Shown: piece after piece, positions 1-18,342 of the stretch | Numbering within the stretch: position 1 is the first letter of the stretch | How the letters are laid out: every line of letters begins with the position of its first letter | Virus record (IMG/VR): IMGVR_UViG_3300042268_000523 | Location: 55,172 to 75,171 of that record | Strand: one strand, 5' to 3' | Source: an uncultured virus (IMG/VR IMGVR_UViG_3300042268_000523) | Lineage: Duplodnaviria > Heunggongvirae > Uroviricota > Caudoviricetes > Schitoviridae | Length of the DNA stretch: 20,000 nt | Notes under the pieces: generated by a model | What the model saw: only the letters and a program-made list of their open reading frames with translations | The model's database searches: none | Told to the model about the DNA's origin: nothing | Translations under genes and position numbers: made by a program

Positions 1-423
1 TCCTTTCATTGCAATCCAAACCAAAGGTAGATGAGCATTAAAACCCCGGGGCCGGGTATCGATATGGAACATAATCCAAGGTAGCCCATCTGGACCCCGG
101 GTATCTAAATACACTCCAATGCCATTGAACAATTTGGAACTGATTAAGGTTTGGTATGTATCAATTGGAATTCCTTCGCAAAAAACATCTACAGCAGTCG
201 ATTTGCGGACAGGTTGATATGCACTGGTACCAATGTAATGCTGTGAGCCTGGATTGCCGTCTAAACGAGCCAGAGCACCTTTAACGGGCGAAGGATAAAT
301 ACGTTGATTTAATAGCTTTCTAAACTGATCTAAAGCCATAATAGTTTTTGGATCAGCTAAGTAGGTAGGATCTTCAGAAAACTCATTGGCATTGAAGTAT
401 TGTATGGCAGACCAATCAATCAT
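1..423 (-). CDS. Endolysin, peptidase M15A/YcbK-like Zn peptidoglycan peptidase (3'-truncated by window edge)
   Basis: Translated by hand from ATG at 423 (ATGA overlap with the stop of 420..794), open to position 1: MIDWSAIQYFNANEFSEDP...ALDQFRKLLNQRIYPSP...ARLDGNPGSQHYIG...STAVDVF...LFNGIGVYLDT...MFHIDTRPRG. YFxxxEF, SxH...AxD, GIGxY and HIDxR are characteristic of M15A/YcbK-type peptidases. Confidence 0.85.
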   Translation of the reverse strand, partial: MIDWSAIQYFNANEFSEDPTYLADPKTIMALDQFRKLLNQRIYPSPVKGALARLDGNPGSQHYIGTSAYQPVRKSTAVDVFCEGIPIDTYQTLISSKLFNGIGVYLDTRGPDGLPWIMFHIDTRPRGFNAHLPLVWIAMKG

Positions 424-794
424 GCGTTTATTCCATTAAAATACTTTTCAAATAACCGATCATATCTGGCCTGGCAAGCTGCCCTGTTCTCTTTACATGT
501 AGCCAAGATATCATCCTCTTTTTTGATTCGAGCAGCTAGTTCTTTATCCATGTATTTATCCAATACATTTTCAAAGCGTACTGCTAGTTTTTCAATATCT
601 AAATTCAAAGCTGCACGTAAACTTTGTAAATCTTGGTGTTTGGGTAATGCCCTATAAATCACCCCGATAAGAATCAGTATAGTAGCCTGTAGAACCAAAA
701 ATGATACACCACCTACTGTTGCCAGCATAGGCCAATCAGCAGCACCTGTTAAAGTGTAATGCCGCATGGGAGCTTCGAGCATAACAGGATCCAT
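420..794 (-). CDS. Single-TM membrane protein with helical/coiled-coil tail; holin-like or spanin-like lysis accessory
   Basis: SD AGAGG upstream; hydrophobic stretch VGGVSFLVLQATILILIGVIY followed by a charged helical region with CxxxxxxC; translationally coupled to the endolysin. Function is inferred from context only. Confidence 0.55.
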   Translation of the reverse strand: MDPVMLEAPMRHYTLTGAADWPMLATVGGVSFLVLQATILILIGVIYRALPKHQDLQSLRAALNLDIEKLAVRFENVLDKYMDKELAARIKKEDDILATCKENRAACQARYDRLFEKYFNGINA

Positions 795-809
795 TTTAAC
801 CTCTTTGGT

Positions 810-1178
810 TTAAAGGTGATTTTTCAAGAGCATTACAGAGATTCGCAAAGCAGCTATAGTCTGGGTATACTGTCCAACATTTACTTTTGAAACAATCGAT
901 AACAGGGTATCTGCATGTTGTGCCAGAGCCATTAATGCATCTGCACTGTCAGGGGTAGCTCGAAGAACCATAACGGTGGTGAGGTAGTTTCTTTCGAGTT
1001 CTGCAAGGGTTTGAATAGTCCCGGGAGATAGAGATTGTTGCACCATGGGATCAGTCAGAATTGTTTTCGCATCCAGGTAGATAACATTAGCTGTTTTCAA
1101 TACCCTTTCTTTCTCCGTGCAAGAAGATACACAGAGAACTGATAAACCAATAAGCAATAAGACCAATAGTTTTTTCAT
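810..1178 (-). CDS. Lipoprotein (signal peptidase II lipobox), probable outer-membrane lysis accessory
   Basis: Start moved to ATG at 1178 (SD AAAGGA upstream): MKKLLVLLLIGLSVLCVSS-C, lipobox VSSC; +2 residue is Thr (not Asp); mature part looks helical/amphipathic. Confidence 0.7.
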   Translation of the reverse strand: MKKLLVLLLIGLSVLCVSSCTEKERVLKTANVIYLDAKTILTDPMVQQSLSPGTIQTLAELERNYLTTVMVLRATPDSADALMALAQHADTLLSIVSKVNVGQYTQTIAALRISVMLLKNHL

Positions 1179-1194
1179 CACATTTCCTTTCTGG

Positions 1195-1629
1195 TTACAG
1201 GTCATAATAAAAGAATTCACCTAAATTATTTACAGCAGAATAGTATACAAAAGCTGCAATCATTCTGCTTCTTAATACCAATCTTTTAAAGAAGCCTTGT
1301 TTAGTTTTTGTAAACCAGGTCCAAATGATTCGTTGCATATTATTTCGAAAGAGCTTATTGGAAAGGGTAAAGCCTGCTCGATCATCCCAAACTGCAAAAC
1401 ACCAATCATGGATTTCACAAGCCGGCCGAATAGGTAAGCCAAAAATTTTATCTGGAATGAGCCAATCTAAAACACCTCTGGGACCACAACCATTAATGAT
1501 CTCTTCCCGATCTTCAATAGTCGCAGCCCAGAAGCTGTTTGGTGCTGACAGATAATATCCCTTATATAATTGTTGGGAAATCTCATCTGTGGCTGAATTA
1601 ACAAAAAGGCTTTCAATTCGTGTAATCAT
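1195..1629 (-). CDS. Phospholipase A2-like / DUF1353-like HD-motif protein
   Basis: NGCGP...P...ACEIHDWCF...SNKLFRNNM...YYSAV..LG pattern matches the NGCG / CxxHDxC[YF] / xDxxF layout of prokaryotic and group XII-type PLA2 and DUF1353 proteins; SD AGGA; no signal peptide. Confidence 0.6.
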   Translation of the reverse strand: MITRIESLFVNSATDEISQQLYKGYYLSAPNSFWAATIEDREEIINGCGPRGVLDWLIPDKIFGLPIRPACEIHDWCFAVWDDRAGFTLSNKLFRNNMQRIIWTWFTKTKQGFFKRLVLRSRMIAAFVYYSAVNNLGEFFYYDL

Positions 1630-1644
1630 TTGAATCCTGTTGAA

Positions 1645-2172
1645 TTAAGCCGGCCAACCGGTATTAATATCAATTGCATTCAATGCTTCGATTGTTGCTG
1701 CTGCACTGATTTGAGCTTTCAGAGTCCAGGCATAAGATACAATCTGGTCGCCACGAGTCTTCAAGAACTGGCCCATATCTATGATATCCTGGGCTGTCAG
1801 GGTTTTCAGGTTGTTGGATACCGGCATGAAATACATGGTGTCTTCCGGATTCTTGTTCATGGCATCGATGACCAGATCCTGGATATTCTGTCGGTCGGTT
1901 TCATCTCGCATCTGGATGCCGTCTGGTTCTGTGTCTCCTGGGAAGGTGTAGGGGATGGAGTCCATGTAGATTTTGGAGTAGCGGATCTCATTGATTTGTA
2001 TGTTTAGTAGTTCTTTAGGTGTGGAATAAGGAAACAATTCCCCATTTTTTATATAATATTTATCAATATCGTCGATTGTAAAATATTCTGGGGCAGTGAT
2101 ATACGTCATTGGTCCTGTATAATTATCTGTTGCAGTCCCTACAATCTGTTGTTCATGAATAAGTATTTTCAT
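1645..2172 (-). CDS. Tail fibre assembly/chaperone-like protein (DUF4376-like C-terminal domain)
   Basis: C-terminal ...LTAQDIIDMG...AWTLKAQISAAATIEALNAIDINTGWPA is typical of DUF4376/tail-assembly proteins; SD GGAG; lies downstream of the tail fibre. Confidence 0.65.
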   Translation of the reverse strand: MKILIHEQQIVGTATDNYTGPMTYITAPEYFTIDDIDKYYIKNGELFPYSTPKELLNIQINEIRYSKIYMDSIPYTFPGDTEPDGIQMRDETDRQNIQDLVIDAMNKNPEDTMYFMPVSNNLKTLTAQDIIDMGQFLKTRGDQIVSYAWTLKAQISAAATIEALNAIDINTGWPA

Positions 2173-2174
2173 AA

Positions 2175-2945
2175 TTAAGGCTCCACGTGTATTAAGCGAC
2201 TTAGGCGCACATAGCTACTCGTACCTCCGAGGGTGCGTTTAGTCTTAAACCCTTGTCCTTGATAATATACAGGTTGCAATATCTCGAACCAGCCAACTAC
2301 AATCATTTCATTAAGGCCCGACCCATCTACAAATGTAAATGACTGATCCTCAGCGGAGTAGTTACTCATCGCCCATTGAAGAACAACACATTTTCTTGTC
2401 GTATGAGTTCCCCATTGATCTAACTGTACCGGTCCCGTATTGGCATCCTCACAATAAGCATCCAAGGCTGTTCGCATAGTCGGATTTTGTGCGAAACTTG
2501 GGAATGCCCGGCTATTATTATATAATAAGAGTTTATTATCCCATTGCGTTGCTCCAAACCAGGATGACATAACTGTTGCCGAATTTGCTATACTTTCTAT
2601 AGCCGCTTCAGAACTTAATACAGCGTCGAACATATCAGGCAAAGCCAATATTTCTGCTGCAACGGCTGGTATATTAACCAGCGCGTCCATCGCAAAACGT
2701 GATTGTGTCCAGATTTTGCGTGCGTGGGCGGAATTAAATATCATACCTCTTGCCAAGGCGGAATTTGCTATAATACTTCTAGTTAAACTTGTTGCTATCA
2801 TTCTTTGGCTTTGACCTGGTAATTCTAACAATACCTCAAAATCAGACTTCCTTCCGAGATCTGCTAAAAGAATGTCCAATTCTGCTCCTGTTATTGCCCC
2901 ATCTTCTATGGCGTTTAATAAACGCCAGGCCCGTACCATCGGCAT
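2175..2945 (-). CDS. Tail-fibre-associated hypothetical protein with degenerate helical (A/I)xxIANS-type repeats
   Basis: ORF of ~256 aa; SD AAGGA fits the second ATG (2945, MPMV) better than 2951; degenerate repeats such as SIIANSALA, AVLSSEAA, SIANSATV; sits between tail fibre and assembly gene. Confidence 0.6.
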   Translation of the reverse strand: MPMVRAWRLLNAIEDGAITGAELDILLADLGRKSDFEVLLELPGQSQRMIATSLTRSIIANSALARGMIFNSAHARKIWTQSRFAMDALVNIPAVAAEILALPDMFDAVLSSEAAIESIANSATVMSSWFGATQWDNKLLLYNNSRAFPSFAQNPTMRTALDAYCEDANTGPVQLDQWGTHTTRKCVVLQWAMSNYSAEDQSFTFVDGSGLNEMIVVGWFEILQPVYYQGQGFKTKRTLGGTSSYVRLSRLIHVEP

Positions 2946-2963
2946 GATCATTTTCCTTATTTT

Positions 2964-5900
2964 TTAAGTGTGTTTTACAACCATTATAGACCAAGTATCT
3001 TGCGCCCCTGAATTTACAGTCCGCGTAGCTGTGGACGAATTAATAATCATAATCGTAACGGTATCTATAGCCGAAACCCAAGCGTAATAGCTTAATGACC
3101 CTGCGTTAACTTCTCCCGGTGCGACACATAAAAATGAAGGAGGAGATGTGATCACGGCATCTCCAGGAACTGCGCCAGCTATGGTGGCCGTAAAACTAGC
3201 TCCATGTTGGGATGCTACAGAGGCTATATTACAATTAGCGGTTCCAAAAAGAAATTTAGTAAGAACAGTATCACGCCACTCATTATCCGGTAGTTGCCAC
3301 GCATACACCAAGTCCCAATGCACAGCTTCCAGTATCCATTTTCCAGTTGTAGTAGCGAAACAGCTTTCATCATCATCTGGTTCATCTGAATTAGTCGTAA
3401 AAATAAAAAGGCCCAGGCCCCGTACTATAGCACTGTCATGTTCAGTAGCATCAGCAGAACGAAGTTGCGCTCTATCGGCATACTCTAAGATTAGAGAAAT
3501 ACCATTGCTACTGCCTGTTTCTATAGTTACCGGTACCCAAGCTGATCCGTTCCATGCCGGCACTTGCCCAGGTGTAGCGGACTTCTGATCCCAATTCGCC
3601 ATGTCCGTAGCATCTTCGTTTGGAACATTATCAAGACCCACATTAGCGGCTGTCGTACCAGAACGAATGACTGCTACAGTCGTAGTTGCTGCATCAGATA
3701 AACCAAGATTTGTTCGAGCCGTTGCTGCATTGTTTAGATCTGACAAGTTACTGGCAATTTTTAGTTGAGCGTCGTTGGTGACGTTTGCCAATCCTATATC
3801 TGATTTTGTGACACTATGAGGATTACCGGTGGTTGTCCCTATATGCGTATCCAGATTCCCCTGGACAGTCGCCGCTGAACCGGCAGGGTCATTGCGTGTG
3901 TCCCTATTGGTCGGAGCAGGGTGGTCAGCTTCATGCGTAGAAACAGCTCCTGCGGCTGTCCCAGAGGCATCATATAATCCTGCATGATCTCCCCAGCCAT
4001 ATGCCGTATCCCAATTGGTGATCTTTACTGTTGTGACAGCACTGGCTTCATGATCAGAAGCCAAAGCACCAACATCTAAAGCTGTTAAAATAATATCAGC
4101 AGAAAGGGCTTTGGTATTTACTGTCCTGGTAGCAGGAACCGCATCGGTAATTCCATATCCCAAAAGAGTAGTAGGTAATGCACTCAATTCTGAGAAATCA
4201 TAAGCCGGCTTCGTAGCTTCTTTTGCCCAGGCAGCAACATCAGAAGCAGGTCTGGCATCCGACAGCCGACTGTCACTGGTATCAATCAGAGTAGCATCAG
4301 AAATTTTGGCATTCAGTTCAGCCAAAGTTGCAGCAGTATGGTCTGCACTCCCTAACCCATGGGCTTGATCATGGATCTTTGCCTTTTCAGCATCCGTTAC
4401 AAAACGATTAGTGGCATCTTGAGCAATGATACTTGGATCATGAGTAGCTGGATGAACATAAGCATTTGCATCTGAAGGAGCATGAGCAGATTCAATATGA
4501 GACTTAATATCTGCGGCAGTTACTGGATTGGTTCCTCCAAAATCCAAAGAAGTATCAGTATTCTGCGTATGGATCTTGGAGATTTCACTATCGGCTACCA
4601 ATGAATGGTCTGCAATGGCATCCACTTTGGTATCAATACCATGCGCATTTGTGGTATTGCCCGTATGCGTATCCAGGTTGCCTTGAACTGTCGCTGCTGC
4701 CCCTGCAACTTCATTGCGGGTATCCCTATCAGTTGGAGCAGGATGGGTCGTAAGATGCGTTTTCAGAGCTGCAGCGGTAACTTCATTTGCACCACCCGAA
4801 TCAAGAGCACTGTCAGAATTTTGAGTATGAATTTTAGCGATTTCTGTATCCGCCACTAACGAAGAACCTGCTACTACATCAACTTTCGTATCGATACCGT
4901 GTGCATCGGTCGTGTTACCCGTATGGGTGTCTAAATTTCCCTGTACTGTTGCAGCAGCACCTGCAACCTCATTACGAGTGTCTCGGTCAGTAGGAGCTGG
5001 ATGAGTGCCTGTATGCGTGTCTAAATTACTTTGAACCGTTGCCGCTGAACCAGCAGCATCAAAATCAGATGAACTGATGCCTGAGTCTTTAAGATTTTTA
5101 CCAGTTGTATCAGAGAAGGCTACAAAGTTATCTGTAACGCTGCTGGCGGGTCCAAGGGTGTCACCCGAACCTAAACCATCAGTACCTTTCTGAGCCAAAT
5201 AATCCCAATCGGTAGCTACTGCGGAAGGCTCTTCTGAAGTAGTTGTATTAGCAATCCAAGAAGAACCAGTATGAGCAACAGCATCATTTTTTTGATAAGT
5301 GCCTGCTACCCAATCACCTTGCCACTGATCCCAGGGATCTCCTTGAGGACCGGTATCGCCAGTTTCCCCTTGAATACCTTGGATTCCCTGTATACCCTGA
5401 ATGCCTTGCGGACCTACTTCTCCTTGTTCACCCTGCAATCCTTGTTCGCCTTGTGGTCCAACTAAGGAAGCTAACCATGCAGCCTCATCACCAACAAAAC
5501 CATTCGTTACAGCAACCTCGTAAGCTGAATCCCCTTCTTCACCTTGCGGGCCAGTTAAACCAATTTCACCTTGTGGACCAACTTCTCCTTGAATACCCTG
5601 GATACCTTGAATACCTTGTGGACCAACCAAAGAGGCCAACCATGCAGTCTCATCTCCTACAAAGCCATTTGCAACTGCCTCTTCATAAGCAGATAAGCCA
5701 GTGTCTCCCTGCGGACCTGTTTCACCCTGTATTCCTTGGATACCTTGAATGCCCTGGGGTCCAACCAACGAATCGAGCCAATCACTTTCAGTTCCAACAA
5801 AACCATTGGCTACGGCTTCTTCATAGGCTGAAAGACCAGTATCACCTTGTGGACCTGCCGGCCCTGTAGCTCCAGTTTCCCCTTGCAATCCTCGGGGTCC

Positions 5901-7527: not shown

Positions 7528-10500
7528 TTATTTACTTAAAATCGTCTCTGTCGCAGCTAGAGGTACTGGCATAAACAATGATCCAAGGAATGAACCAACA
7601 GGATTATCTATCTTATTCAAAGGATCGCTCGTTACCAGCGGGATAGAATTATATACATGATCCGCCCCTAAATGGCTGGCCATCATAATTGACATGGCCA
7701 CATCAAAAGGCTTCTCAATGATGCTCTTATAAATTGGTTTCAAAATTCTGACTCCATATTTCGTGAACCAGAACAAACCAATTTCATTAAAGTATTCGGT
7801 CAGCCGATGGGTTGGTACATCGAAGTTTACAAACTCCTCCATAGCCTTGGCTGCAGCTTCGGCTTTATCCATTTTATCGACTTTCGTATAGTGGGTATAG
7901 AGTATGTGCCGGCCAATGAAATCGGTCATTTTAACAGCATTATTGAGCAGCTTATAACCATTGGTATCCTGGGTCATAAACATAATCTTACCGACATTCT
8001 GAATTGTCGGATGAAGTTTCTGCATACCCTTATCAGTCAGCTGTTCCATCGGTCCTGGGAAATAGGATTTATTGAAAGCAGTTTCAAGATCATCTACCAG
8101 GGATGGCATCAATCCGGATTCAATAGATTCCCGTACTGGATTCCTGGCAATGGAATCTTCGAGCTGCATCAATTCATTATCAATCACCCGGGTAGACTTA
8201 CCCGCTTTTTTAGCCAGCTGTTGCTGAACTAATAGTTCATCTCGCTTTTTGGTATCTGCCTGATATTTTGTTCCCATATACCAAGCTTCCCAACCCAAAT
8301 TAATAATCGTACTGGTTGGAATGCCTCGACCTTTTAAATAAAACATATTGCTGCCAAGGTTCTTCATCGTCACTGTCAAAGACTTTACAATGATATTGCT
8401 TTTCGCAATCTTCGTAAGCTCCATTGCCCACTGCTCTAAATTATGTGCAACGATGATTCCTTTGTTTTTGGGCAATAGATGATTGAATATTGAAACAATC
8501 AATCGTTCCAGTTTCGCCTGCTCTTCTTTATTTTTGGTGAAGGCTTCTGCAATACCATACTTGCGATAACCAAAAACCAAGTCTAAAATCTCTTTGGCTA
8601 CAAACATTTTACCGGAAGAATTTCCCCAGATTTTCCTGGCTGCTGCTTTCATAGAATCCGGCATCATATAATACAGCTCTCTCATTTTTGGATCACTGAC
8701 TGATGGACCTACTTCAACAAAAGCAGCAGGATTTTCTTGGTAGTGTTTGTCAAAATGTTCTTTCAATACTATCACCAGGTCTTTGTTGATTACCGGAGTA
8801 CGAACCTTATCAACAATCTGACCTGCCATTCCTCCAAGTATTGCATCGAAATCATTTACCTTTTCCAGATAAGAATCTTTAGTTACTTCGGTCATCATAT
8901 ACCGATAAGATACAATGTTACCCAGTCGATTAAACTGCGGCACCATATGAGTACCAGACTTAGGAACCGTAGGTACAATAGTTGGATCCATCATAGCCTG
9001 GATATTCTTTTGTTTGTCCTTAATGATATCCGCATTATTCTGTCGGCCAACTTTAGTAGACACATCCAATTCCAAAGCAATATCCTGGGAATTTGTACCT
9101 TTTGGTTTCCGGCCAGTAAATGAAACGATTCCCGTGAGCCGATCATTAACCCTTCCAGTCTTAGATGTATAAATATACATTTTGGTTTGTCTGGTTGGAT
9201 CAAGAGGATCTCTGGCAACTGGATACAGGCTTCTTGTATACCCGTTTGCAATGAAAGCTTCTTCTTGATCTTTTGTTCCATATTCATATTTAATTCGGGG
9301 ATTCAAAATCTCTTTAATATAGCCCTTCTGAAAGAGATACTTATTCCCATTAAACGATTGCTCTAAAGCCTGTTCTTTGAGCACTTGGTGCATGTTCAAT
9401 ACACCTACCACTCCTTCAGGATCTTTCTCCATTAAAGCGGCAAATTCGGCTCTCTGCGAGCGATTGGTATACTGCAAGGCATAGAGGCTAACCAGCTGAT
9501 CAATCAACGGCTCCATGCGATCTACGACCTTCTCGTTAATTGAATTCATTAATTGAGTATCTCGACAACCTGCAATCGCTCGAACACTTTGGAAAGCATC
9601 TTCATTATTCCGGCTAAATCCATGAACCATAAACCAGCCTAAAGCATCGCTGGCCTTCTGATAAAAAACTTTGTGTTTACCGGTCAAATCCTTGTCTTTC
9701 CGGATTTGAGCTAAAATCTTATCAATCTCTTGGTTCAATGCTTTTGGTTCCTGCAAAACCTTTAACAGTCGATCTGCTCCCAGCGTAGGCAGTAATGCAG
9801 CCAAATCTGGCTTCAATCCAATCTTTGTAATACTGACCGATTCTGAGACTGTAGGAGCCGTTTTAAAGAGCTTTACAGCCAATTCGCTATAGGTATCAGA
9901 GGCAGCTTGTTTAACCGTATCTAGCAGCATATGACGGCGATTTAAGAGCCAATAGAATTTGGTCCATTTATCCGTTCTACCGATTCCTTCGGTTACAGCT
10001 GCCTTAATCATATTCTGGTCCATGGCCTCAATACGATTAAACAGTCCTCGCATACTTTGCCCTAAAGCCGTATCAGAGTCCCTCATAGCATTGCCCAGGT
10101 TTCGCAGGTCATTTGCTATTCGGATTACCGGAGTCTTTGTAAAAACAGCCTTAATCGTCTTGTTACCGATATCAGAAACAGTCTTTGTCAAACCAGCATG
10201 TTTGGCCTTAGCCTTTTCAAACAACTGGGTCTTATTCTTCGAATCAATCTGAGCCATTCGAAAGGCCAATCTATCTAACTCAGCTGCCATGTTGTCCTTC
10301 GGAGAAAACTTCACAAATTTGCCTGAAACAAATTGAAAAATCTTCCGGGCAATATTCATCAAAGTTGTTTGAATATTTGGTCCCTTAATTTCTGCCCAGG
10401 TAGTTTTGGTATAAGCTGTCTGATCCAAAGAAATCTGTAACATCGCTTTCCGGAAATTTTCATTGGTAGCAGCATAAGCCATAAACTCATCCAAATGGGT

Positions 10501-13500
10501 TGAGTATTTATGGGTTGTCTCAATACCAGTAGCAGGATTCACACTCTTTTCAGCCACTACCCTGGCTTCTCGGAAAATATAATTGAAAGCCTGTTGAGCA
10601 GCTTCTACCTCAAACTGATTTGCCGGATCAGTTACATCGATTGTAGGATCATTCAAAAAGACCTTATATCCATCTGCTCCTAATTTCTTAAAGGCAATCC
10701 GGTAAAGCATTTCAACCTTATTTCGCATACCAGGCATATGTCGTAAACCAAAAGCAATAATCGTATGATACAGTTCATGGGTATATACTTCGCCGGTACT
10801 CATCCGAATGCCACTATTCAGTGCACCAGATACAGGAGCTACCGGCTGCTTACTAATGAAAATACGACCTTTCTCATTCTGCTGGCCAGGGACAAAAGCA
10901 CCATAGGCTTTGGCATACGGGTTTGATTTCAAGTACACATCAATCGGCTGCATGACATGCCGTACCAAATCATTAAGTAGGTTTTGCAGATGCTGATCAT
11001 GTTCCGCACTATCAATCTTACTGCTATCATTTTTGATCTGGTTATACAGATGCAGAACATTCTGCCCATTGATCTCCTGTTCTAAAACATATTCAGCAGG
11101 ATCAATGGTAATCGGTTGATCAACACTGCTTCCAAAGATATTGTTCTCTTCCAGAAATGCTTTGATCTCTTTGGTTAAATCTTTTGCCATATCCAGTTCA
11201 GCCTGACGCTTATTTGTAACCTGACGAGTCACATCACCGGCCGGCAGAGCATTGGTTTTATTTTGATTCACGATATAGGCAGCACCAGGATAGCTGTACT
11301 GCTCCACCTTCTGCATAATAGAAACCAACCAATCTTTATTCTTTTTGGTTGCTGCTGCTGTTTCCTTGGTATTTTTGATAATCTGTTTAATGGCAGCAGC
11401 CATATTGTTTTCATTGATCTTAACTGGTTTACCATCCAAATCAGTCATATGGGTAATTTTCATACTCTTGAGTTCAGACAGTAAAGCCTTTTTAACATCA
11501 ACAGAGTTAATCTCCCCTCGATCTAAAAGCTCTTGCAGTTGCTGCTGATAATTGGTTTGGGTATCCAGCACTCCTTGGTTCAATTCTACACCCATATCAT
11601 AATCTTTCATGACAGTGTAGAAATGCTCATTTAAAGCCTGTCCCAATTTAACAGCATCCAGGAAACTGGTGGTGAACCCATCATGGTTATTGAGTATATT
11701 GGCCCACTCTAAACCCAGAGTCATATTGGCAATCATACTATCGATATCATGAATGGTCAGAATTGTACCCGCTACCCCGGGAGCTTCCAAACCTTCTCGT
11801 TTATATGGAGCACCTTTTTTCAAAGGAATAATCGAGTCGGTATAAGATTGAATTACTCGATCTTTCCCGTACTCTTTGTTCCGGGTTTCCTTAGCCAAAG
11901 GAATCTTACCACCCATGTACGTTTTGACCTGGGGAAACAGAGGCTGTAAGTCAGCTTCAATCTGTCGCAGCTCTTCAACAGTTATTTTTCTTTTTGGTTC
12001 ATCTGATTTGGCAATCTGTGCCTGCAGCTCTTTGACTCGCAGTTTATACATTGTGTTATACATGGCTGCAGCCAGATTAATCCCGGTATTCAGCGGAGCA
12101 AACGTAGCCTGCATGTCACCATAAACATTGGTGATCGCATCGCTTAAAGCCTGGCCATGATACTGGCTAACAGAGTTGGTAATAGCAGTTACATGCTTGT
12201 CTGTTAAAACGGTATTTAATAACACCTTGGAATCAACTACATCCCCTTTCAGAGCAGCAGCGAGAATGTTCTTATCTTCGGTCAGAACAATCAGGTCTTG
12301 TTGCAAAGCCCGTAAAGCATCTGCATCTTTAGATGCTGCAATCGTTTCCATCTGGGTATAGATTAGATTGATTGCAGTTTCACCCAACTCTTTTAAAAGA
12401 GTATTTTCACCCATTCCATAAACTGTTTTCATGGTTGGGTCTTTAGAGAGTTTACGAACTATTTTGGTGATATTGCCATCAGCTTCTCGGAAATCTCCAA
12501 AGAGATTCTTCAGTGCATTTAATACCTGTAATTGTTCTTTGGTATCTGTATCATTTTCGATGATCAGTTTTTCCGCTGCAGTGAGAGCATTTGCCCAAGC
12601 AAATCCAACAGCCTGATAAGCATCATGATTTAATGCTCCGGCCAGGTGTTGAGCCAAACCAGCGTAATCCTCATCAAAACTAATACCAGCATTTTGTAAA
12701 GCAGCCAGAGTTTCCAGTCGATCTGCTTCTGCACCCATTAATTGAACTCGACCTATGGCAGGTCCATTCGATACTCCATCGATCTCCGTAGGCAGGTCTG
12801 TTTTGAAGGTTTTCTGTTTGGTTTCTACAGCAGTTAAATAACGAGCATACTCAATAATGCCCTTCATCGAATGAATGTTTAAACCACCTTCTTTGGTCGC
12901 TGCAGCCAAAGCGGTTAATTCTTGTTTGTAACCTGCCTGCAGTTCTGCCATCTTTTCTGGATTAAGGGTATCAAGATCACCTGTTTCTTTAATGATCTTT
13001 TGAACAGCTTTAATGGCATCTTGGAAAACAGGTTCTTGGAGCTTATCTTCAGTTTTCTCTACGGCTTCCATCAAGCCGCCTTCTTTACTAACCTCAATAT
13101 CCAAAGCCAGACTTACAGCTTCCATGAAGCTGTAATAGGCATCGATGTCAGTAGGATTGAATTCAGCCTCCCAACCTTTCATATTGAACAGGAATCGATC
13201 TACCTTGCTACCCTGTGGGTTTATATCACCCACTTGCCCCATACGTCCTTGCCGCCAGAATTCAGCGGGAATAAACAATTCAGAAGCATAACCATTAGGT
13301 TGTTGTGCTGCGTCAGCCAACCATGCCTGTATACGCTTATAATTTTGTTCCAGATTAAAATTAACCCCTTCAACAGAATCCTGATTAACCTTGTGAGCAG
13401 TGGCAGGATCCTGAAATCCCATAACCATTTTCAGATTATCTGGATCCAATAACAAAAAGAAATTCATGCTTCTGGCACTGGCTACATAAGGTTTATTGAT

Positions 13501-16500
13501 ACTGTTGATCAGATTCTTGGTTTGCTGTTTGGTAGCCTTAAAACCAGTTTTCTTTAAAATAAATTCTGCAGCTTCTTTGTAAGTTAGAGGTTTCCACCGA
13601 TAGTTCTTTTTATCAACCTCTCCTTCAAAAACTAAATCCCAGGTTGTTTTGGAATTTTGATAAGGAGTTACAAGATTATCTGTAATATCCTGTGCTAATC
13701 GATCATAACCAGTTTCCGGATCCACTTCTGTTCGTACCCGGTAAAAATCGATAGCACCTTCGTCTTCAACATCTTCCCATTTTCCGTTTTTATCTTTCTT
13801 CAATTCAAAACGATTTTGGATACCATTAAATTTCTTACGATTCTGGGGATCTGCTTTTTGTTCATTCTTCAAACCTTCTAAACCAGACACACTATCAGAA
13901 GCTTTCTGTCCTTTCTTGGTTCCCTGGAAAATCTTGGTCATGGTTAGATAACCCATGTGTTCCATGGTTGCCATAGCCTGCAAACCCAATGAAATCTCTA
14001 ATCGGTTCTGAAGGTCAAAGTCGGCCTTTTCCTGAGCTTCCATACCCAAGAGCTTATAAATATCTTGGCCCAATTGTTCCTGCAGCATAGTAGCTGTAAC
14101 GCCCTTATCTCGCAGCAATCTCATAGCCAGTTGGGTAGGCTTTTGATCATCTTTCAAAGCCAAAATTCTGCCTACAGTTTTTTCATCATTCAATACTGTT
14201 TCACTGGCCCGGGTAGCCAAATATTTATAGGATACCGCCATCATTGCATTTACAACTTTGGGAGCCAGATTACCCTGAGCGTCAACCAAATATTGAATTG
14301 GATCGGTATCCCGGTAAGGCATACCCTTTGCGGTATAGGCTTTAAAGAGACGCTTGGTATTTTCATCTCCGTGTAGAGCTGCCTGGAAAGCCTCACCGAA
14401 TTTAACAATTGAATCTACCGCTGCTTGGGTATTTTCATTGAAAGGATTTTCTTTGCTAAAATACTTTTCATAATTGGCAAATAATCCATTCTTCAATGCT
14501 TCCAGAACTCGATGAGTCTTTTGCATCAAGGGCTGAATACCTTTCTTAATCGCCTTCTTCCCAAAGGTTAGAAACAGCTTATTTGGAATATCAGGATCTA
14601 CATCTGTCTCTGTATCGGCTTCCTCCTGCTCAGAAGCTTCCACTCCTTCCGGGTTCGATTCCGGATCAGCTGTTCGCTGATCCTCCTTCGAACCCTCTTC
14701 TGTGGAAGCTTCTTCGGTCTGGGCGGAAGCCGGCTCAACAGTTTCAATTCGTTTTTTGGCTTTTAATACGGCAGCTACCACATCAGCTTTAGCTGATCCT
14801 TTAACAACCTTCATACCCTCTAATTCTGCAATCGTAGAATCTTTGTATTCCAGAATTTTTTGCATATGGTTGTTGTTACTGGATAGTTCATTGGCTTCAC
14901 TTTCGGTAAAACCCATTGACTGTAAACTTGCCACCAACTCTAATTTCTCATCCAAAATTTCTTGAGCAGCAGCAATTTCATTTTGAATGGTTTCTCGTAA
15001 TTGTCCTGAGTATTTCTTTAACTTTTTCTGTCGATTACGAATAATCTGTTCAAGACCTTTGGCAGTTTTATTTTCAAACTCTTTTGTATTTACAAATTGT
15101 TTCTTCCTGGGAACAGGTTTCTTTGGTTTCGCCGATTTGGTTTCTTCCTGTTTTTTGGCAGGTGGTTTATTGTCCGTCTTCTGTTGACCCAGTTGATCGG
15201 CTACTACAATTTTCTGAACCAAAGCCAAAGCATCTGTTAATGCGGTAGGGTTGTCATTTTTCAATCGTTGAACCAAAGTGAAAAATAACTCTTTGATTGT
15301 ATCTACCAAACTCTGGTCGGCTTTCATCGGCGGCAGAGTATTCAAGTATTCCTGGAAAGGTCGAGAACTAATAGCCTGAGCTACAAACTCTTTTTCATTT
15401 GTAAAAGCATAACCTTTTTGTTTACCTGGATCCTGTTTTAATACATGATCCATTAAGCTTTTGGCTTGACCAATTAAATCTGATTGGGAGTCTAAATGCT
15501 TACTGGTTAATACATGGGTGTATTCGTGCAGGAATACCGTTGCCGGCGACATCTTTTTGGTTCGTTGCTCAGTCGGGTAATCAAACGTCTCATTCAAATT
15601 AATGGTATTATCTATAGCTCGACCAGCTACCGATTTTTTTGTTTGAGCATTTACCATATCCGTTTTAAATGAAACCGTTACCGGAGTGAAAGGAACACCC
15701 AATTTATTGAGTTCAGCTAACACCGAAGCAGCCCAAACACTGCTTTCATCATCTTTTAAAGCTCGGCCTTTCTGCTGCATTAAAGCATCAAATTCCTGGC
15801 TTACTTGAACCAGTTCGTCCAATGAATTAACAGTAAGAGAGCCTTTATTATCTGTCGTAAGGATTCGGCCCACTTTCTCATTAAAATGCAAACGAGGAGC
15901 ATCCCCACCCTCCGGAACAGTCGGGTCCGGAGTTTGTGTGGTGGTGGGGATTGTGGTGCCAGACTGTTGCCTGGGAGAGTCAGGCGACTCAGGAGTTAGT
16001 GGTATGGGTATCTCCTGAGTTTCTGCAGCTACCCCTTGCCCTGGTGTTTGTTCAGATTGTTCAGTGGCAGCCTTATTTTTATTTTTAAAAGCCTCAACCA
16101 TATTCTCACCTACAACTACTGCCTGGTTGAGCAACTTAGCCTCCTGTTCCATATTTTTAATTGTGGCCTCAAAAGCTGGGCCTACAGTATACGGTTTAAG
16201 TGGATTACCTTTCTTATCAGTTTCAGAAGTCCGTTTGGCTTGAATGGCATCCCAATTGGCCTGGGTATCTGGATCCAAAGATTGATTGGTTTTGACAGCT
16301 TCTTGGACAGCCCTAAAAGTAGAAGCTCGAACCTGTTTTTGATCTGCCCAAGCTCGAAGCTTATTAAGACGGTTTTCCGCCTGTTTAACGTCCTTTTGGA
16401 TCAGAGCTATACCAATGCCTTGGTGATGGTCTGTAATCCCCATAAAACCGTCTTCTGCGTTACCATCTATAATATCGGATCGAACATCAACCGGAGACTT

Positions 16501-18342
16501 GTCTCTTTGCCGTATGTATTCTTTTTGGTTTTCAATTTGGTCTTTGATTGAACTGATTAAATTCTTCTGGGCTTCAGTGAGATTTCTGGCCTGTAACAGG
16601 TCATCAATAGTAGCAACATCATCTTCATTCAATAAAGCAATTCCACCTGTTGAACCAAAAATTTCAAAAATAGTATCGTCCACAGAATTGCTGTCTGCCT
16701 GTTTAAGGGCAGTTTTCATTTCTGTGAGCTGTTCAGGGGTAACCTGTTTAGACTCCTTCATGCTTTGCAGTAAAGGATCTGCAGTTTCCAGAATTGTTGT
16801 AAGTGATTTGGCCCTTTGAAATAGAACCTGGATCCGATTGTTATCTGCATCTGTCGCTTCTGCTTTAGAACGCAGCTCTTTCATCTCTGCCATAGCAGCT
16901 GCTTTTTGTTCTTTCAACGAAGCAACCATATCAGCCGCATCTTCAAAATTAGCGATCTTATCAATCGGTTTTAGTTTGGGATCCTGGCTACGCTTCTGTT
17001 TAGCCTTTAAAGCCAATAAAGGATTATACTCAGGTTTTTCTGGATCAATGTAGGTAGCAGTATCTCCTGTCTTTGCAACTTCAGCTACTTTTTGATCAAA
17101 GCCATATTTTGCTTCCGCCCGGGCTAAATCCTTTTCACGTTGAACAGCTGCTCGTTGTTTCTGTTCTTGATTGGATCGAGAAAGTGTGGCTCCAGTACCT
17201 GCTGCCGGACCCATAAGAGCACCAGCCATACCAGCATCAAGCCGTTCAGCTTTTGCCTCTTCAGACATTAAATCTTCAACACCCTTACCCCACTGCTCGA
17301 TACCTGTTTGCGTATATTCTTGGGCAAATTCAGCAGGAGCCATAATACCTGCCGTTGTAGCTCCACGAGCCAAACGACCAGGTACTCCATCGATATTATC
17401 AACGACTTTACCCAACTGACCTTTAAAGGCTTTCAGACCCAATACGGTTTCCATATACTCAACCGTTCCGGCCAAAGCCGTAGCGGTTAAACCTTTTCCG
17501 ATTTCTTTGCCTGTCAGTGGAGTTCCTCGTTCAGAAGACTGTTGAGCCAGATCACCCATAATCTCGCCACCTTCTAAACCAAAAGACATAGCACCCATGC
17601 CAGCATGTTGGCCGACTGCTTGAGTAATACGAGATACTGCTAATTTGGCTGCTGCTTCCTGGGAAAGTGTTTGACCGGCTTTTGCAGCTACAGCTATAAG
17701 CCGATCAGTCTCTTTCTTAACCAATCCACCCATAACTTTTTTGATAACTGTTTTGCCTGCTACTTGGGTTCCAGCACTAACCACCCCAGCACCGATTAAA
17801 ATCGTTCCCAGCTGAGCTACTACATTTGGAAGATTATATGCTGCCCAATCACCCAAGGCTCCCCAGTCCCCGTCTTTGGCTTTTTGATATGAGTATGTGA
17901 ACGAATCTTCTGGACGAGCATTTCGAGATATATCAGTTGCAATCTGTGTATAGCCTTCAAGCATTTTTTCTTTAAACTTGGTGCTTAAACCGCCTTCTCC
18001 AAAAGCCGATTCGCCTATAGCTCCTGCTCCAGCTCCTAATCCATATCCACTCATAGGAATCAATTTTGCAGCATCGGAAAGACTTCGAACAGCTTTATCT
18101 CCTATAGTCTCGGGTGTTCGAGTCAATACAAAATCTCGTAACTTTTGTTCATTAAATTGATTTATTTGTCGTTGTTGTTCCAGAACTGGATCAGGTGTAA
18201 TAACATTACCACCTAAACGCTGTTGTTTATCTGCAGAAATTTGACCTAATAATCGAGCTTTAGCTTCAGCAATAGATAAAACTTTATTTTGTTTCTCGTC
18301 TGAAACAGTTGGTTGATTTTGTAAGACATCAAATAAAGACAT
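7528..18342 (-). CDS. vRNAP: Virion-encapsidated single-subunit DNA-dependent RNA polymerase (N4 gp50-like)
   Basis: 3604 aa; WRQGR (T/DxxGR-like, R1700), motif A EIDGVSNGP (D1855), motif B RKLSKDPTMKTVYG (R1963), motif C NNHDG (D2221); Gly/Ala-rich hydrophobic N-terminus; only one Cys; two HExxH motifs; SD AAGGA. Confidence 0.95.
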   Translation of the reverse strand: MSLFDVLQNQPTVSDEKQNKVLSIAEAKARLLGQISADKQQRLGGNVITPDPVLEQQRQINQFNEQKLRDFVLTRTPETIGDKAVRSLSDAAKLIPMSGYGLGAGAGAIGESAFGEGGLSTKFKEKMLEGYTQIATDISRNARPEDSFTYSYQKAKDGDWGALGDWAAYNLPNVVAQLGTILIGAGVVSAGTQVAGKTVIKKVMGGLVKKETDRLIAVAAKAGQTLSQEAAAKLAVSRITQAVGQHAGMGAMSFGLEGGEIMGDLAQQSSERGTPLTGKEIGKGLTATALAGTVEYMETVLGLKAFKGQLGKVVDNIDGVPGRLARGATTAGIMAPAEFAQEYTQTGIEQWGKGVEDLMSEEAKAERLDAGMAGALMGPAAGTGATLSRSNQEQKQRAAVQREKDLARAEAKYGFDQKVAEVAKTGDTATYIDPEKPEYNPLLALKAKQKRSQDPKLKPIDKIANFEDAADMVASLKEQKAAAMAEMKELRSKAEATDADNNRIQVLFQRAKSLTTILETADPLLQSMKESKQVTPEQLTEMKTALKQADSNSVDDTIFEIFGSTGGIALLNEDDVATIDDLLQARNLTEAQKNLISSIKDQIENQKEYIRQRDKSPVDVRSDIIDGNAEDGFMGITDHHQGIGIALIQKDVKQAENRLNKLRAWADQKQVRASTFRAVQEAVKTNQSLDPDTQANWDAIQAKRTSETDKKGNPLKPYTVGPAFEATIKNMEQEAKLLNQAVVVGENMVEAFKNKNKAATEQSEQTPGQGVAAETQEIPIPLTPESPDSPRQQSGTTIPTTTQTPDPTVPEGGDAPRLHFNEKVGRILTTDNKGSLTVNSLDELVQVSQEFDALMQQKGRALKDDESSVWAASVLAELNKLGVPFTPVTVSFKTDMVNAQTKKSVAGRAIDNTINLNETFDYPTEQRTKKMSPATVFLHEYTHVLTSKHLDSQSDLIGQAKSLMDHVLKQDPGKQKGYAFTNEKEFVAQAISSRPFQEYLNTLPPMKADQSLVDTIKELFFTLVQRLKNDNPTALTDALALVQKIVVADQLGQQKTDNKPPAKKQEETKSAKPKKPVPRKKQFVNTKEFENKTAKGLEQIIRNRQKKLKKYSGQLRETIQNEIAAAQEILDEKLELVASLQSMGFTESEANELSSNNNHMQKILEYKDSTIAELEGMKVVKGSAKADVVAAVLKAKKRIETVEPASAQTEEASTEEGSKEDQRTADPESNPEGVEASEQEEADTETDVDPDIPNKLFLTFGKKAIKKGIQPLMQKTHRVLEALKNGLFANYEKYFSKENPFNENTQAAVDSIVKFGEAFQAALHGDENTKRLFKAYTAKGMPYRDTDPIQYLVDAQGNLAPKVVNAMMAVSYKYLATRASETVLNDEKTVGRILALKDDQKPTQLAMRLLRDKGVTATMLQEQLGQDIYKLLGMEAQEKADFDLQNRLEISLGLQAMATMEHMGYLTMTKIFQGTKKGQKASDSVSGLEGLKNEQKADPQNRKKFNGIQNRFELKKDKNGKWEDVEDEGAIDFYRVRTEVDPETGYDRLAQDITDNLVTPYQNSKTTWDLVFEGEVDKKNYRWKPLTYKEAAEFILKKTGFKATKQQTKNLINSINKPYVASARSMNFFLLLDPDNLKMVMGFQDPATAHKVNQDSVEGVNFNLEQNYKRIQAWLADAAQQPNGYASELFIPAEFWRQGRMGQVGDINPQGSKVDRFLFNMKGWEAEFNPTDIDAYYSFMEAVSLALDIEVSKEGGLMEAVEKTEDKLQEPVFQDAIKAVQKIIKETGDLDTLNPEKMAELQAGYKQELTALAAATKEGGLNIHSMKGIIEYARYLTAVETKQKTFKTDLPTEIDGVSNGPAIGRVQLMGAEADRLETLAALQNAGISFDEDYAGLAQHLAGALNHDAYQAVGFAWANALTAAEKLIIENDTDTKEQLQVLNALKNLFGDFREADGNITKIVRKLSKDPTMKTVYGMGENTLLKELGETAINLIYTQMETIAASKDADALRALQQDLIVLTEDKNILAAALKGDVVDSKVLLNTVLTDKHVTAITNSVSQYHGQALSDAITNVYGDMQATFAPLNTGINLAAAMYNTMYKLRVKELQAQIAKSDEPKRKITVEELRQIEADLQPLFPQVKTYMGGKIPLAKETRNKEYGKDRVIQSYTDSIIPLKKGAPYKREGLEAPGVAGTILTIHDIDSMIANMTLGLEWANILNNHDGFTTSFLDAVKLGQALNEHFYTVMKDYDMGVELNQGVLDTQTNYQQQLQELLDRGEINSVDVKKALLSELKSMKITHMTDLDGKPVKINENNMAAAIKQIIKNTKETAAATKKNKDWLVSIMQKVEQYSYPGAAYIVNQNKTNALPAGDVTRQVTNKRQAELDMAKDLTKEIKAFLEENNIFGSSVDQPITIDPAEYVLEQEINGQNVLHLYNQIKNDSSKIDSAEHDQHLQNLLNDLVRHVMQPIDVYLKSNPYAKAYGAFVPGQQNEKGRIFISKQPVAPVSGALNSGIRMSTGEVYTHELYHTIIAFGLRHMPGMRNKVEMLYRIAFKKLGADGYKVFLNDPTIDVTDPANQFEVEAAQQAFNYIFREARVVAEKSVNPATGIETTHKYSTHLDEFMAYAATNENFRKAMLQISLDQTAYTKTTWAEIKGPNIQTTLMNIARKIFQFVSGKFVKFSPKDNMAAELDRLAFRMAQIDSKNKTQLFEKAKAKHAGLTKTVSDIGNKTIKAVFTKTPVIRIANDLRNLGNAMRDSDTALGQSMRGLFNRIEAMDQNMIKAAVTEGIGRTDKWTKFYWLLNRRHMLLDTVKQAASDTYSELAVKLFKTAPTVSESVSITKIGLKPDLAALLPTLGADRLLKVLQEPKALNQEIDKILAQIRKDKDLTGKHKVFYQKASDALGWFMVHGFSRNNEDAFQSVRAIAGCRDTQLMNSINEKVVDRMEPLIDQLVSLYALQYTNRSQRAEFAALMEKDPEGVVGVLNMHQVLKEQALEQSFNGNKYLFQKGYIKEILNPRIKYEYGTKDQEEAFIANGYTRSLYPVARDPLDPTRQTKMYIYTSKTGRVNDRLTGIVSFTGRKPKGTNSQDIALELDVSTKVGRQNNADIIKDKQKNIQAMMDPTIVPTVPKSGTHMVPQFNRLGNIVSYRYMMTEVTKDSYLEKVNDFDAILGGMAGQIVDKVRTPVINKDLVIVLKEHFDKHYQENPAAFVEVGPSVSDPKMRELYYMMPDSMKAAARKIWGNSSGKMFVAKEILDLVFGYRKYGIAEAFTKNKEEQAKLERLIVSIFNHLLPKNKGIIVAHNLEQWAMELTKIAKSNIIVKSLTVTMKNLGSNMFYLKGRGIPTSTIINLGWEAWYMGTKYQADTKKRDELLVQQQLAKKAGKSTRVIDNELMQLEDSIARNPVRESIESGLMPSLVDDLETAFNKSYFPGPMEQLTDKGMQKLHPTIQNVGKIMFMTQDTNGYKLLNNAVKMTDFIGRHILYTHYTKVDKMDKAEAAAKAMEEFVNFDVPTHRLTEYFNEIGLFWFTKYGVRILKPIYKSIIEKPFDVAMSIMMASHLGADHVYNSIPLVTSDPLNKIDNPVGSFLGSLFMPVPLAATETILSK

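Follow-up and report, generated by a model that had tools for sequence, protein, structure and literature searches.

The genome of an uncultured Schitoviridae phage (IMG/VR record IMGVR_UViG_3300042268_000523) carries a compact four-gene cassette encoding a phospholipase A2 (PLA2)-like protein (gene 1), a lipoprotein (gene 2), a single-pass membrane protein (gene 3), and a candidate endolysin (gene 4). The analyzed stretch of 20,000 nucleotides (nt), hereafter the window, spans genome positions 55172–75171 and corresponds to the final 20 kb of a single-contig genome of 75,171 bp, which is complete and circularly assembled, as indicated by a 127-bp repeat at both ends. Open reading frames (ORFs) were called by a longest-ORF rule (93 ORFs), and 91 ORFs plus 14 extras were scanned against PHROG. 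The scan identified the virion RNA polymerase, two N4-type RNA polymerase subunits, portal, major head protein, large terminase, replication genes, and an integrase; by its predicted genes, the phage is N4-like. The late genes lie on the minus strand, with the cassette as their last members, and the plus-strand replication genes converge on them from downstream, ending at genome position 54933. No lysis family was found at E ≤ 1e-4 in the whole-genome PHROG scan, and a DNA search of window positions 1–3000 against phage records returned no match.

Reading of the strand bears out the tight linkage of the four genes reported in the initial annotation. Gaps of 16 nt and 15 nt separate genes 1 and 2 and genes 2 and 3, respectively, genes 3 and 4 share an ATGA overlap, and purine-rich Shine-Dalgarno-like stretches (AGGA, AAGGAA, and AAGAGG) are located in the gaps. 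Outside the window, on its left, gene 4 continues for 168 nt; a 71-amino-acid (aa) ORF and then the convergent replication genes follow. Neither the cassette nor the region just past the left edge contains a canonical holin, Rz/Rz1, a nested lipoprotein, or a u-spanin. A hydropathy scan of the cassette detected one transmembrane segment (gene 3) and one signal peptide (gene 2), and nothing more, and in an all-frame lipobox scan of all 75,171 bp the single convincing lipoprotein ORF is gene 2. These scans, together with a mature lipoprotein that has only 3 Pro among 103 residues, uphold the initial view that a multi-transmembrane holin, a nested Rz1, and a Pro-rich o-spanin are missing. Further lysis genes had been suspected beyond the edge; what lies there is the remainder of gene 4 and a probable fifth gene, with no canonical holin or Rz/Rz1. 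Hydropathy, lipobox, and PHROG scans revealed no spanin candidates elsewhere in the genome. The other lipobox match, a 46-aa ORF antisense to a 376-aa gene, is an artefact, and an embedded Rz/Rz1-like pair at genome 32.2 kb on the minus strand was rejected as it lies antisense inside a 376-aa plus-strand gene.

The gene 1 product has neither a signal peptide nor a transmembrane segment. It contains a G47-C48-G49-P50 loop, P59-D60, and C71-x-x-H74-D75, with N91 in the column of the dyad Asp. The single sequence matches no Pfam family even at E ≤ 10 and no PHROG family, and does not reach the curated Pfam cut-off for PF07087 or PF09056. A profile of its six close homologues (A1) matches four solved group XIV/XIII PLA2s with E values of 2e-4 to 2e-3, the best being 8k1w (2e-4) and 1faz (6e-4). 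At E ≤ 1e-3, an exhaustive profile search of the family recovered 1916 cluster representatives, of which 790 remain at E ≤ 1e-10; among the 150 matches listed, most members are 113–160 aa long, and 16 longer members scanned for fusions carry no extra Pfam domain. We then aligned 60 sequences (A3: the six close homologues, approximately the top fifty listed minus most of the longest, then about every tenth). The A3 profile matches 1faz (2e-7), 4aup (2e-6), 8k1w (7e-6), and 7ygk (2e-5), and its members touch DUF1353 (32/60) and Phospholip_A2_3 (12/60) at E ≤ 0.01, with best values of 1.4e-5 and 1.2e-4. H74, D75, G49, and N97 are invariant in all 60 sequences, C48 and C71 are present in 57, and H74-D75 aligns to the H-D pair of 1faz, 8k1w, and 7ygk.

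Structure prediction agrees with the profiles. The AlphaFold2 (AF2) model of the gene 1 product has a mean confidence (pLDDT) of 91.3, and in a Foldseek search of the PDB ranks 1–4 and 7 are all PLA2s (probability 0.51–1.0, TM-score 0.42–0.57, E 0.01–1), the best being 4aup, 7ygk, and 1faz (probability 0.98–1.0, E 0.01–0.1). The best BFVD match is a "phospholipase A2 domain protein" of the N4-like Vibrio phage 1.097.O (E 3.6e-6, TM-score 0.68/0.73); tblastn against phage records detected one Vibrio phage only, and a single-sequence locus search with the window protein gave no match. Thus, by profile and modelled fold, the signal-less PLA2-fold protein proposed at the outset is predicted to be of the group XIV/DUF1353 (TtaP) kind, with one defining catalytic feature missing: it lacks the second Asp of the His/Asp dyad (D85 in both TtaP and SvPLA2), which most of the family has.

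Two further residues of this protein merit description. C48 sits in the G-C-G-P-x-G loop and C71 lies three residues before the catalytic His, H74; this arrangement mirrors the Ca-loop-to-helix disulfide of classical secreted PLA2s. The Cys48-Cys71 pair and the Ca-loop-like motif suggest that the PLA2 would be harmless in the reducing, low-calcium cytoplasm.

The gene 2 product carries a signal peptide with the lipobox V-S-S-C20 at its end and a Thr at +2; its mature part has no further Cys. By the +2 sorting rule, which is that of E. coli, gene 2 is predicted to encode an outer-membrane-type lipoprotein, as first annotated. The lipoprotein has no Pfam or PHROG family, a word-index search returned only the lipoprotein itself, and the nearest Atlas clusters consist of unnamed viral proteins (score 0.91–0.92). 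Homologues with 33–47% identity (alignment A4, 6 sequences) define a family of eight independent groups: the window, L053/L062, L058/L060/L076, L097, L118, L119, L120, and L122 (L numbers designate fetched loci). A PLA2-type gene lies within 2 kb of the lipoprotein gene in all eight groups; it is of the window's type in four and a canonical DUF1353 above the Pfam cut-off in the other four. The membrane proteins nearby vary and include coiled-coil proteins with an N-terminal transmembrane segment (window, L119, L122), 53–54-aa two-transmembrane proteins (L053/L062 and L118, also L008), and tail-anchored coiled-coil proteins (L062 and L097, also L007). This is the pattern expected of holins and not of an i-spanin tied to the lipoprotein. 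The small two-transmembrane proteins are conserved in four loci (52–54 aa, two hydrophobic stretches; L008 and L062 are 66% identical) and are encoded after the lipoprotein gene, immediately upstream of the PLA2/DUF1353 gene.

Gene 3 encodes a protein with an uncharged span at residues 21–47, followed by a charged helical C-terminal region of 77 aa (15 K+R, 13 D+E) that contains Cys100 and Cys107. The net charge is -2 before the span and +2 over the first 15 aa after it; charge bias alone predicts an N-out, C-in topology. We found no homologue in the 126 fetched loci, no Pfam or PHROG match, and no lipobox ORF nested in the gene; the Atlas leads, Holin_BhlA (0.81, below the useful range) and DUF2730, all score below 0.9. 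Small size, one transmembrane span, a charged C-terminus, and ATGA coupling to the endolysin gene fit holin features, making gene 3 the likeliest holin candidate, with an i-spanin role as the alternative. The initial annotation allowed for the PLA2–lipoprotein pair to replace the holin; because gene 3 is ATGA-coupled to the endolysin gene and is the obvious holin candidate, the pair is probably not a holin substitute.

A precomputed Pfam domain is absent from all 35 homologues of gene 4. In an alignment of 27 sequences (leaving out P0017, P0019, P0022, P0025, P0027, P0029, P0032, and P0035), H62, D79, H120, and D122 are invariant, the first three being the presumed His/Asp/His zinc ligands, and the spacing between the His and the Asp is 11–17 residues, longer than in canonical LAS/M15 enzymes. 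Gene 4 matches no Pfam or PHROG family, neither phmmer nor the 27-sequence profile found an M15 chain in the PDB, and tblastn of the endolysin against phage records gave no match. The AF2 model has a pLDDT of 91.0. Foldseek returned nothing from the PDB at E ≤ 0.001 with this model; VIA-align ranked the Streptomyces Zn DD-peptidase 1lbu best (Z 7.8), with hedgehog N-domains (5.6–5.8), VldE (5.3), Ply500 (4.7), LysB4 (4.6), T5 endolysin (4.4), and then MepA, VanY, and VanX below it. LAS enzymes and hedgehog N-domains make up nine of the 12 top rows, at Z between 7.8 and 3.9, a range (Z < 8) that can reflect a common arrangement. Gene 4 is therefore modelled as a divergent LAS/M15-like zinc peptidase and candidate endolysin outside the described M15 families; the original label "M15 endolysin" is backed by the modelled fold and the invariant residues, not by a Pfam or PHROG match, and should be softened accordingly.

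The neighbourhoods of gene 4 homologues connect this family to the same partners. Among 29 loci, in which 130 of 166 neighbour ORFs were compared with Pfam (the duplicate L113 and ORFs below 62 aa left out), Holin families adjoin gene 4 family members in L096, L103, and L105. DUF1353 adjoins them in all four closest relatives (L086–L089) and in L093, L097, and L120, and a lipoprotein then follows in L087, L089, and L097. In the closest relatives, the gene that directly precedes the window-type endolysin encodes a conserved protein of about 250–260 aa and no known family. This protein, the 52/53-aa two-transmembrane proteins, and the tail-anchored coiled-coil proteins of the relatives have no counterpart in the window genome (tblastn best E 0.7).

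To place gene 1 in a broader context, we surveyed PLA2 loci obtained by a pattern scan of viral contigs; the best 80 of 166 confirmed relatives, plus two others, gave 67 groups at 90% identity. On either side, the three same-strand ORFs closest to the PLA2 gene were compared with Pfam (374 proteins in total) at E ≤ 1e-3 for the first batch and 1e-4 for the other two. A Pfam endolysin lies within three ORFs of the PLA2 gene in 22/67 loci, and the enzymes belong to Phage_lysozyme, GH108, Amidase_2, Amidase_3, Peptidase_M15_3, M15_4, and Hydrolase_2. The window's own endolysin family is present near the PLA2 in L008 and L073, a sub-threshold lysozyme in L053, and a holin with no endolysin in L063. 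Under a model with one detectable endolysin, uniform placement, a genome of at least 40 kb, and one gene per 0.9 kb, 7.8 of 67 loci would be expected, and 22 or more occurred in ~5e-6 of simulations. In five loci (L013, L021, L027, L036, L039) the PLA2 gene is downstream of a Mor/C-type activator, with Mu gp27 downstream in four and DUF2730 in L036; by phage Mu gene order, we take these to be lysis regions. In the published gene table of Fusobacterium phage FNU1, DUF1353, a hypothetical protein, and an amidase are consecutive.

An all-frame lipobox scan of the same 67 loci revealed recurrent pairing with a lipoprotein gene. In 21 loci a lipoprotein ORF is found on the same strand at no more than 2.5 kb from the PLA2 gene, and in 15 loci one abuts that gene (90 nt or less); lipobox ORFs on the opposite strand of the same stretches were found in 0/67 loci, and beyond 2.5 kb the same strand yielded a single lipobox ORF in 270 kb. 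The lipoproteins whose genes abut the PLA2 gene fall into many sequence families and are 48–161 aa long. The pair occurs in several cassette layouts: holin, GH108 endolysin, lipoprotein, PLA2 (L041, L065); small terminase, lipoprotein, PLA2, with the large terminase next in L037 (L037, L071); holin, PLA2, two lipoproteins, M15_3 (L067); lipoprotein, PLA2, Amidase_2 (L079); and lipoprotein, PLA2, M15_4 (L010). Judged by the gene orders of lambda and T7, respectively, the pair presumably occupies the Rz/Rz1 position in L041 and L065 and the 18.5/18.7 position in L037 and L071. In relatives, endolysin genes from at least seven Pfam families and abutting lipoprotein genes thus accompany the PLA2 gene far above chance, an association that the initial annotation had marked for survey. 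Neither of two outcomes named there as refuting, canonical lysis genes just past the edge and a PLA2 unlinked to lysis genes in relatives, was obtained.

In most phages, the outer-membrane step of lysis is done by spanins. Starting from what was observed (the gene structure, the folds, the lack of canonical spanin genes, and a linkage that recurs in other phages), we infer the holin role, the site of action, the role of the lipoprotein, and catalysis in the following scheme. The 124-aa single-pass protein would build up in the inner membrane and serve as the holin. Upon its triggering, the two signal-less cytoplasmic proteins would enter the periplasm, where the 196-aa LAS/M15-like zinc peptidase would cleave peptidoglycan cross-links. 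The PLA2-like protein may be docked or activated at the outer membrane by the lipoprotein of the adjacent gene, and production of lysophospholipids and fatty acids would break the last barrier; if the Asn variant is a poor enzyme, lipid binding may do so instead. We estimate at about 0.5 the probability that the PLA2 and the lipoprotein form an enzymatic, lipoprotein-assisted outer-membrane disruptor that replaces spanins in the late-operon lysis cassette of this N4-like phage.

Several observations weigh against this assignment, and there are three alternatives to it. The dyad-Asp column holds Asp in 51/60 sequences, Asn in 8/60, and Thr in 1/60, and the Asn sequences are the window protein and seven of its nearest relatives. 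Enzymatic action of the window PLA2 is not assured because of this Asn and because TtaP D85A is inactive (PMC11525133); both facts also speak for an alternative in which the Asn-91 subclade has lost catalysis and acts non-enzymatically within lysis, for instance by binding lipids, by wedging into membranes, or by regulating the lipoprotein. We regard this as the least probable of the three alternatives. The subclade keeps H74, D75, the G-C-G-P-x-G loop, and the Cys pair, which is unexpected for a dead enzyme, and an Asn can still hydrogen-bond the catalytic His. The direct link between window-type PLA2s and the canonical DUF1353 neighbours is weak, with a profile–profile probability of 9.8% and a pairwise E of 0.0033, and deletion of ttaP is reported to cause no detectable envelope or toxin-secretion phenotype in the host (PMC11525133). 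In the survey, 41/67 loci have no Pfam endolysin or holin match within three genes; neighbour genes were called on one strand only by the longest-ORF rule with the PLA2 ORF fixed, and the expected-count model is rough. Elsewhere the PLA2 gene is found near a helicase (L004), head genes (L014, L017), ribonucleotide reductase (L056), or an integrase (L084). In L006, whose PLA2 is the closest relative among those fetched (52% identity), DUF3164 lies upstream and Mor is the second gene downstream; no endolysin was seen there. In another alternative, the PLA2 acts at entry, as an enzyme of the virion or tail, or else in tail assembly, and the lipoprotein protects the infected cell or excludes superinfecting phage. 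Type VI secretion effectors include phospholipases that are paired with lipoprotein immunity proteins. Consistent with such a role, the window PLA2 gene directly follows the tail-fibre genes, 15 nt after that of the DUF4376 protein, tail genes are neighbours in L059, L064, and L083, parvovirus capsid PLA2 domains are weak fold matches (E about 1 or more), and PHROG 1158, matched by 32/60 family members, is labelled "tail assembly chaperone". A DUF1353 gene likewise follows tail-fibre genes in the gene table of Francisella phage KIRK (PMC7924643). However, the PHROG label is an unverified annotation, the PLA2 is small in most listed members and has no attached structural domain, it is enriched near endolysins and holins of many families, and with the lipoprotein it fills the Rz/Rz1 and 18.5/18.7 slots in relatives; a role in entry or tail assembly is thus unlikely, though less so than loss of catalysis.

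The assignment of gene 3 bears on the remaining alternative. Gene 3 belongs to no known holin family, and three ORFs of 57–64 aa far from the cassette, each with two transmembrane segments and a basic tail (the shape of class II holins) and no PHROG family, could be the holin or antiholin instead. Gene 3 could also be the i-spanin and the lipoprotein the o-spanin of a separated two-component spanin in reverse order, with the PLA2 accessory or unrelated. An outer-membrane-type lipoprotein gene 15 nt from a gene whose product has an N-terminal transmembrane segment, a long charged helical domain, and two Cys presents features of the type on which spanin searches rely, and T4-type o-spanins likewise lack proline-rich regions (PMC6139136). 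Against this, the charges around the span of gene 3 point to a C-terminal domain on the cytoplasmic side, and its homologues are absent from the fetched loci, while the constant neighbour of the lipoprotein family in 8/8 groups is the PLA2/DUF1353 gene. In several of these groups the only nearby membrane proteins, the 53–54-aa two-transmembrane and tail-anchored coiled-coil proteins, cannot span the periplasm. We know of no reverse-order spanin pair anywhere. A lipoprotein gene upstream of gene 3 is also the reverse of the architectures tabulated in PMC6139136. We therefore consider a spanin pair the foremost of the three alternatives and still an improbable one, and favour a lipoprotein-assisted, PLA2-based disruptor.

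The closest characterized protein is TtaP of the Salmonella typhoid-toxin islet, the founder of DUF1353 (PF07087); work published in 2024 established it as a PLA2, with H70/D85 as the dyad and D71 in addition (PMC11525133). TtaP has no signal peptide and stays cell-associated, and its gene neighbours that of the phage-type muramidase TtsA. Its authors did not find its biological role; they favour perturbation of the outer membrane after muramidase action, which they could not show (PMC11525133). The window PLA2 shares with TtaP and with the group XIV PLA2s of Streptomyces violaceoruber (1faz/1lwb) and Tuber borchii (4aup) the three-helix PLA2 core, the H-D motif, and the small size, and with TtaP also the lack of a signal peptide and a position beside the gene of a phage-type cell-wall hydrolase. 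It differs from TtaP in scoring below the Pfam threshold, in the Asn at the dyad Asp, and in keeping the Cys pair, whereas TtaP has no disulfides (PMC11525133). It also has a lipoprotein partner, whereas none of the five islet genes named in that paper (cdtB, pltA, pltB, ttsA, and ttaP) is described as encoding a lipoprotein. Group XIV PLA2s are secreted with cleaved N-terminal sequences; none is predicted for the window protein.

Like the two-component spanins (lambda Rz/Rz1, T7 18.5/18.7, T4 PseT.3/PseT.2), the pair includes an outer-membrane lipoprotein, occupies in relatives an equal place in the cassette, and would serve the third step of Gram-negative lysis. Unlike in spanins, the lipoprotein is paired with a soluble PLA2-fold protein instead of an inner-membrane coiled-coil protein, the proposed target is lipids and not membrane fusion, and the lipoprotein of the window is long, with few Pro and no Cys for disulfide links. 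The combination of an outer-membrane lipoprotein with a (predicted) phospholipase A-type protein is also reminiscent of the colicin lysis proteins (bacteriocin release proteins), which together with outer-membrane phospholipase A permeabilise the envelope and release cell contents (PMC2896534). In that system, however, the phospholipase is the host beta-barrel OMPLA and only the lipoprotein is encoded on the mobile element, whereas here both are phage-encoded, the enzyme candidate is a soluble helical PLA2, and activation by the lipoprotein is conjecture.

Other non-spanin solutions for the outer layer are LysB, a lipolytic enzyme in the lysis cassette of mycobacteriophages (PMC5707550), the patatin-like PLA2 in a proposed "lytic cassette" of phage WO with a single-transmembrane holin-like protein (PMC9203015), and the cationic peptide gp28 of phiKT, an alternative to spanins described in an account that puts phages without spanins at ~15% (10.1101/515445). 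None of the three has a lipoprotein partner; LysB is an esterase that acts on mycolyl-arabinogalactan, the WO patatin has an unrelated fold and a likewise only proposed role, and gp28 is not an enzyme. Gene 4, in turn, resembles the M15/LAS enzymes (T5 endolysin, Ply500, LysB4, VanY/VanX, Streptomyces Zn DD-peptidase) in its modelled fold class, its invariant His/Asp/His, and the endolysin position of its family beside holins, and differs from them in lacking a sequence match to any M15 Pfam model or PDB chain, in a best Z of only 7.8, in its His-to-Asp spacing, and in a C-terminal extension of 40–50 aa.

The remaining features are collected in Table 1. The 71-aa ORF overlaps the 3' end of gene 4 in another frame and matches no Pfam or PHROG family. 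Its homologues occupy the equivalent place in five loci (L086, L087, L088, L089, and L008; jackhmmer E 1e-24 to 2e-35), and the ORF is therefore probably a genuine fifth gene of the cassette, encoding a small soluble helical protein. Upstream of the cassette, a tail-fibre protein with long collagen-like G-x-x repeats and several internally repeated modules matches 51 PHROG tail-fibre families; next come a 258-aa protein and then the DUF4376 protein. The latter is predicted to be of the tail-fibre C-terminal/assembly type and to mark the boundary between the tail-fibre genes and the cassette; since its gene is only 15 nt from gene 1, the cassette continues the tail-fibre operon. In L062, a DUF4376 homologue (71% identical) is likewise followed by a lipoprotein, a 53-aa transmembrane protein, a PLA2, a tail-anchored protein, and a lysozyme. 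The genome, otherwise N4-like, encodes a tyrosine integrase; N4-like phages are usually virulent. Relatives of the lipoprotein family are present in Desulfotignum and Desulfobacter metagenome-assembled genomes, and one endolysin homologue (P0012) is labelled Deltaproteobacteria. The L119 lipoprotein and PLA2 relatives sit in a 6.9-Mb Desulfobacter chromosome and may belong to a prophage. The host is probably a Gram-negative sulfate reducer of the Desulfobacteraceae type.

Table 1. Positions of the cassette genes and other features (window coordinates unless marked as genome or as a fetched locus).
Feature	Position	Strand	Remarks
Gene 1, PLA2-like protein	1629..1195	minus	144 aa
Gene 2, lipoprotein	1178..810	minus	122 aa from the MKK start (ORF open from 1220)
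Gene 3, single-pass membrane protein	794..420	minus	124 aa
Gene 4, endolysin candidate	423..1 and beyond; genome 55594..55004	minus	141 codons in the window; 196 aa in full
71-aa ORF	genome 54898..55113 (L117:14898-15113)	minus	probable fifth cassette gene
DUF4376 protein	1645..2172	minus	175 aa; upstream neighbour; Pfam DUF4376 5.7e-12; PHROG tail fibre families 1e-5
Tail-fibre protein	2964-6074	minus	1036 aa
Virion RNA polymerase	7528..18342		3604 aa; phrog_2206
Tyrosine integrase	genome 49812..50951 (L117:9812-10951)	plus	phrog_1, E 3e-39
Small two-transmembrane ORF	genome 20158..20352 (L116:158-352)	minus	hydropathy scan
Small two-transmembrane ORF	genome 41685..41873	plus	hydropathy scan
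Small two-transmembrane ORF	genome 49153..49326	plus	hydropathy scan
Conserved 52-54-aa protein of relatives	L062:2838-2999; L053:4837-4998; L008:2361-2519; L118:302-466		two hydrophobic stretches
Conserved ~250-260-aa protein of relatives	L087:4229-5008; L088:4207-4989; L089:4231-5004; L008:562-1317		no known family

A survey of phage genomes found no spanin in 91 of 677 and makes no mention of lipases (PMC6139136). For spanin-less phages, the cationic peptide of phiKT is one reported means of breaching the outer membrane (10.1101/515445). Our literature searches, which covered sources other than subscription journals and supplements, found no paper that gives DUF1353 or group XIV-like PLA2s a role in phage lysis. 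We tentatively propose, at somewhat less than even odds, that a soluble PLA2-fold protein and an outer-membrane lipoprotein constitute a widespread, undescribed two-gene lipolytic substitute for spanins, which would explain part of the ~13% of phages that are spanin-less and of which the ttsA-ttaP pair would be a domesticated remnant. If so, a lipoprotein-docked phage phospholipase would be a second, enzymatic answer to the breach of the outer membrane, the large DUF1353/PLA2-like family would gain a biological role, and both the origin and the function of TtaP would have a plausible account. Small, disulfide-poor bacterial PLA2s and lysis factors active on the outer membrane also have practical appeal, the uses in view being as enzymes and in support of endolysin-based antibacterials.

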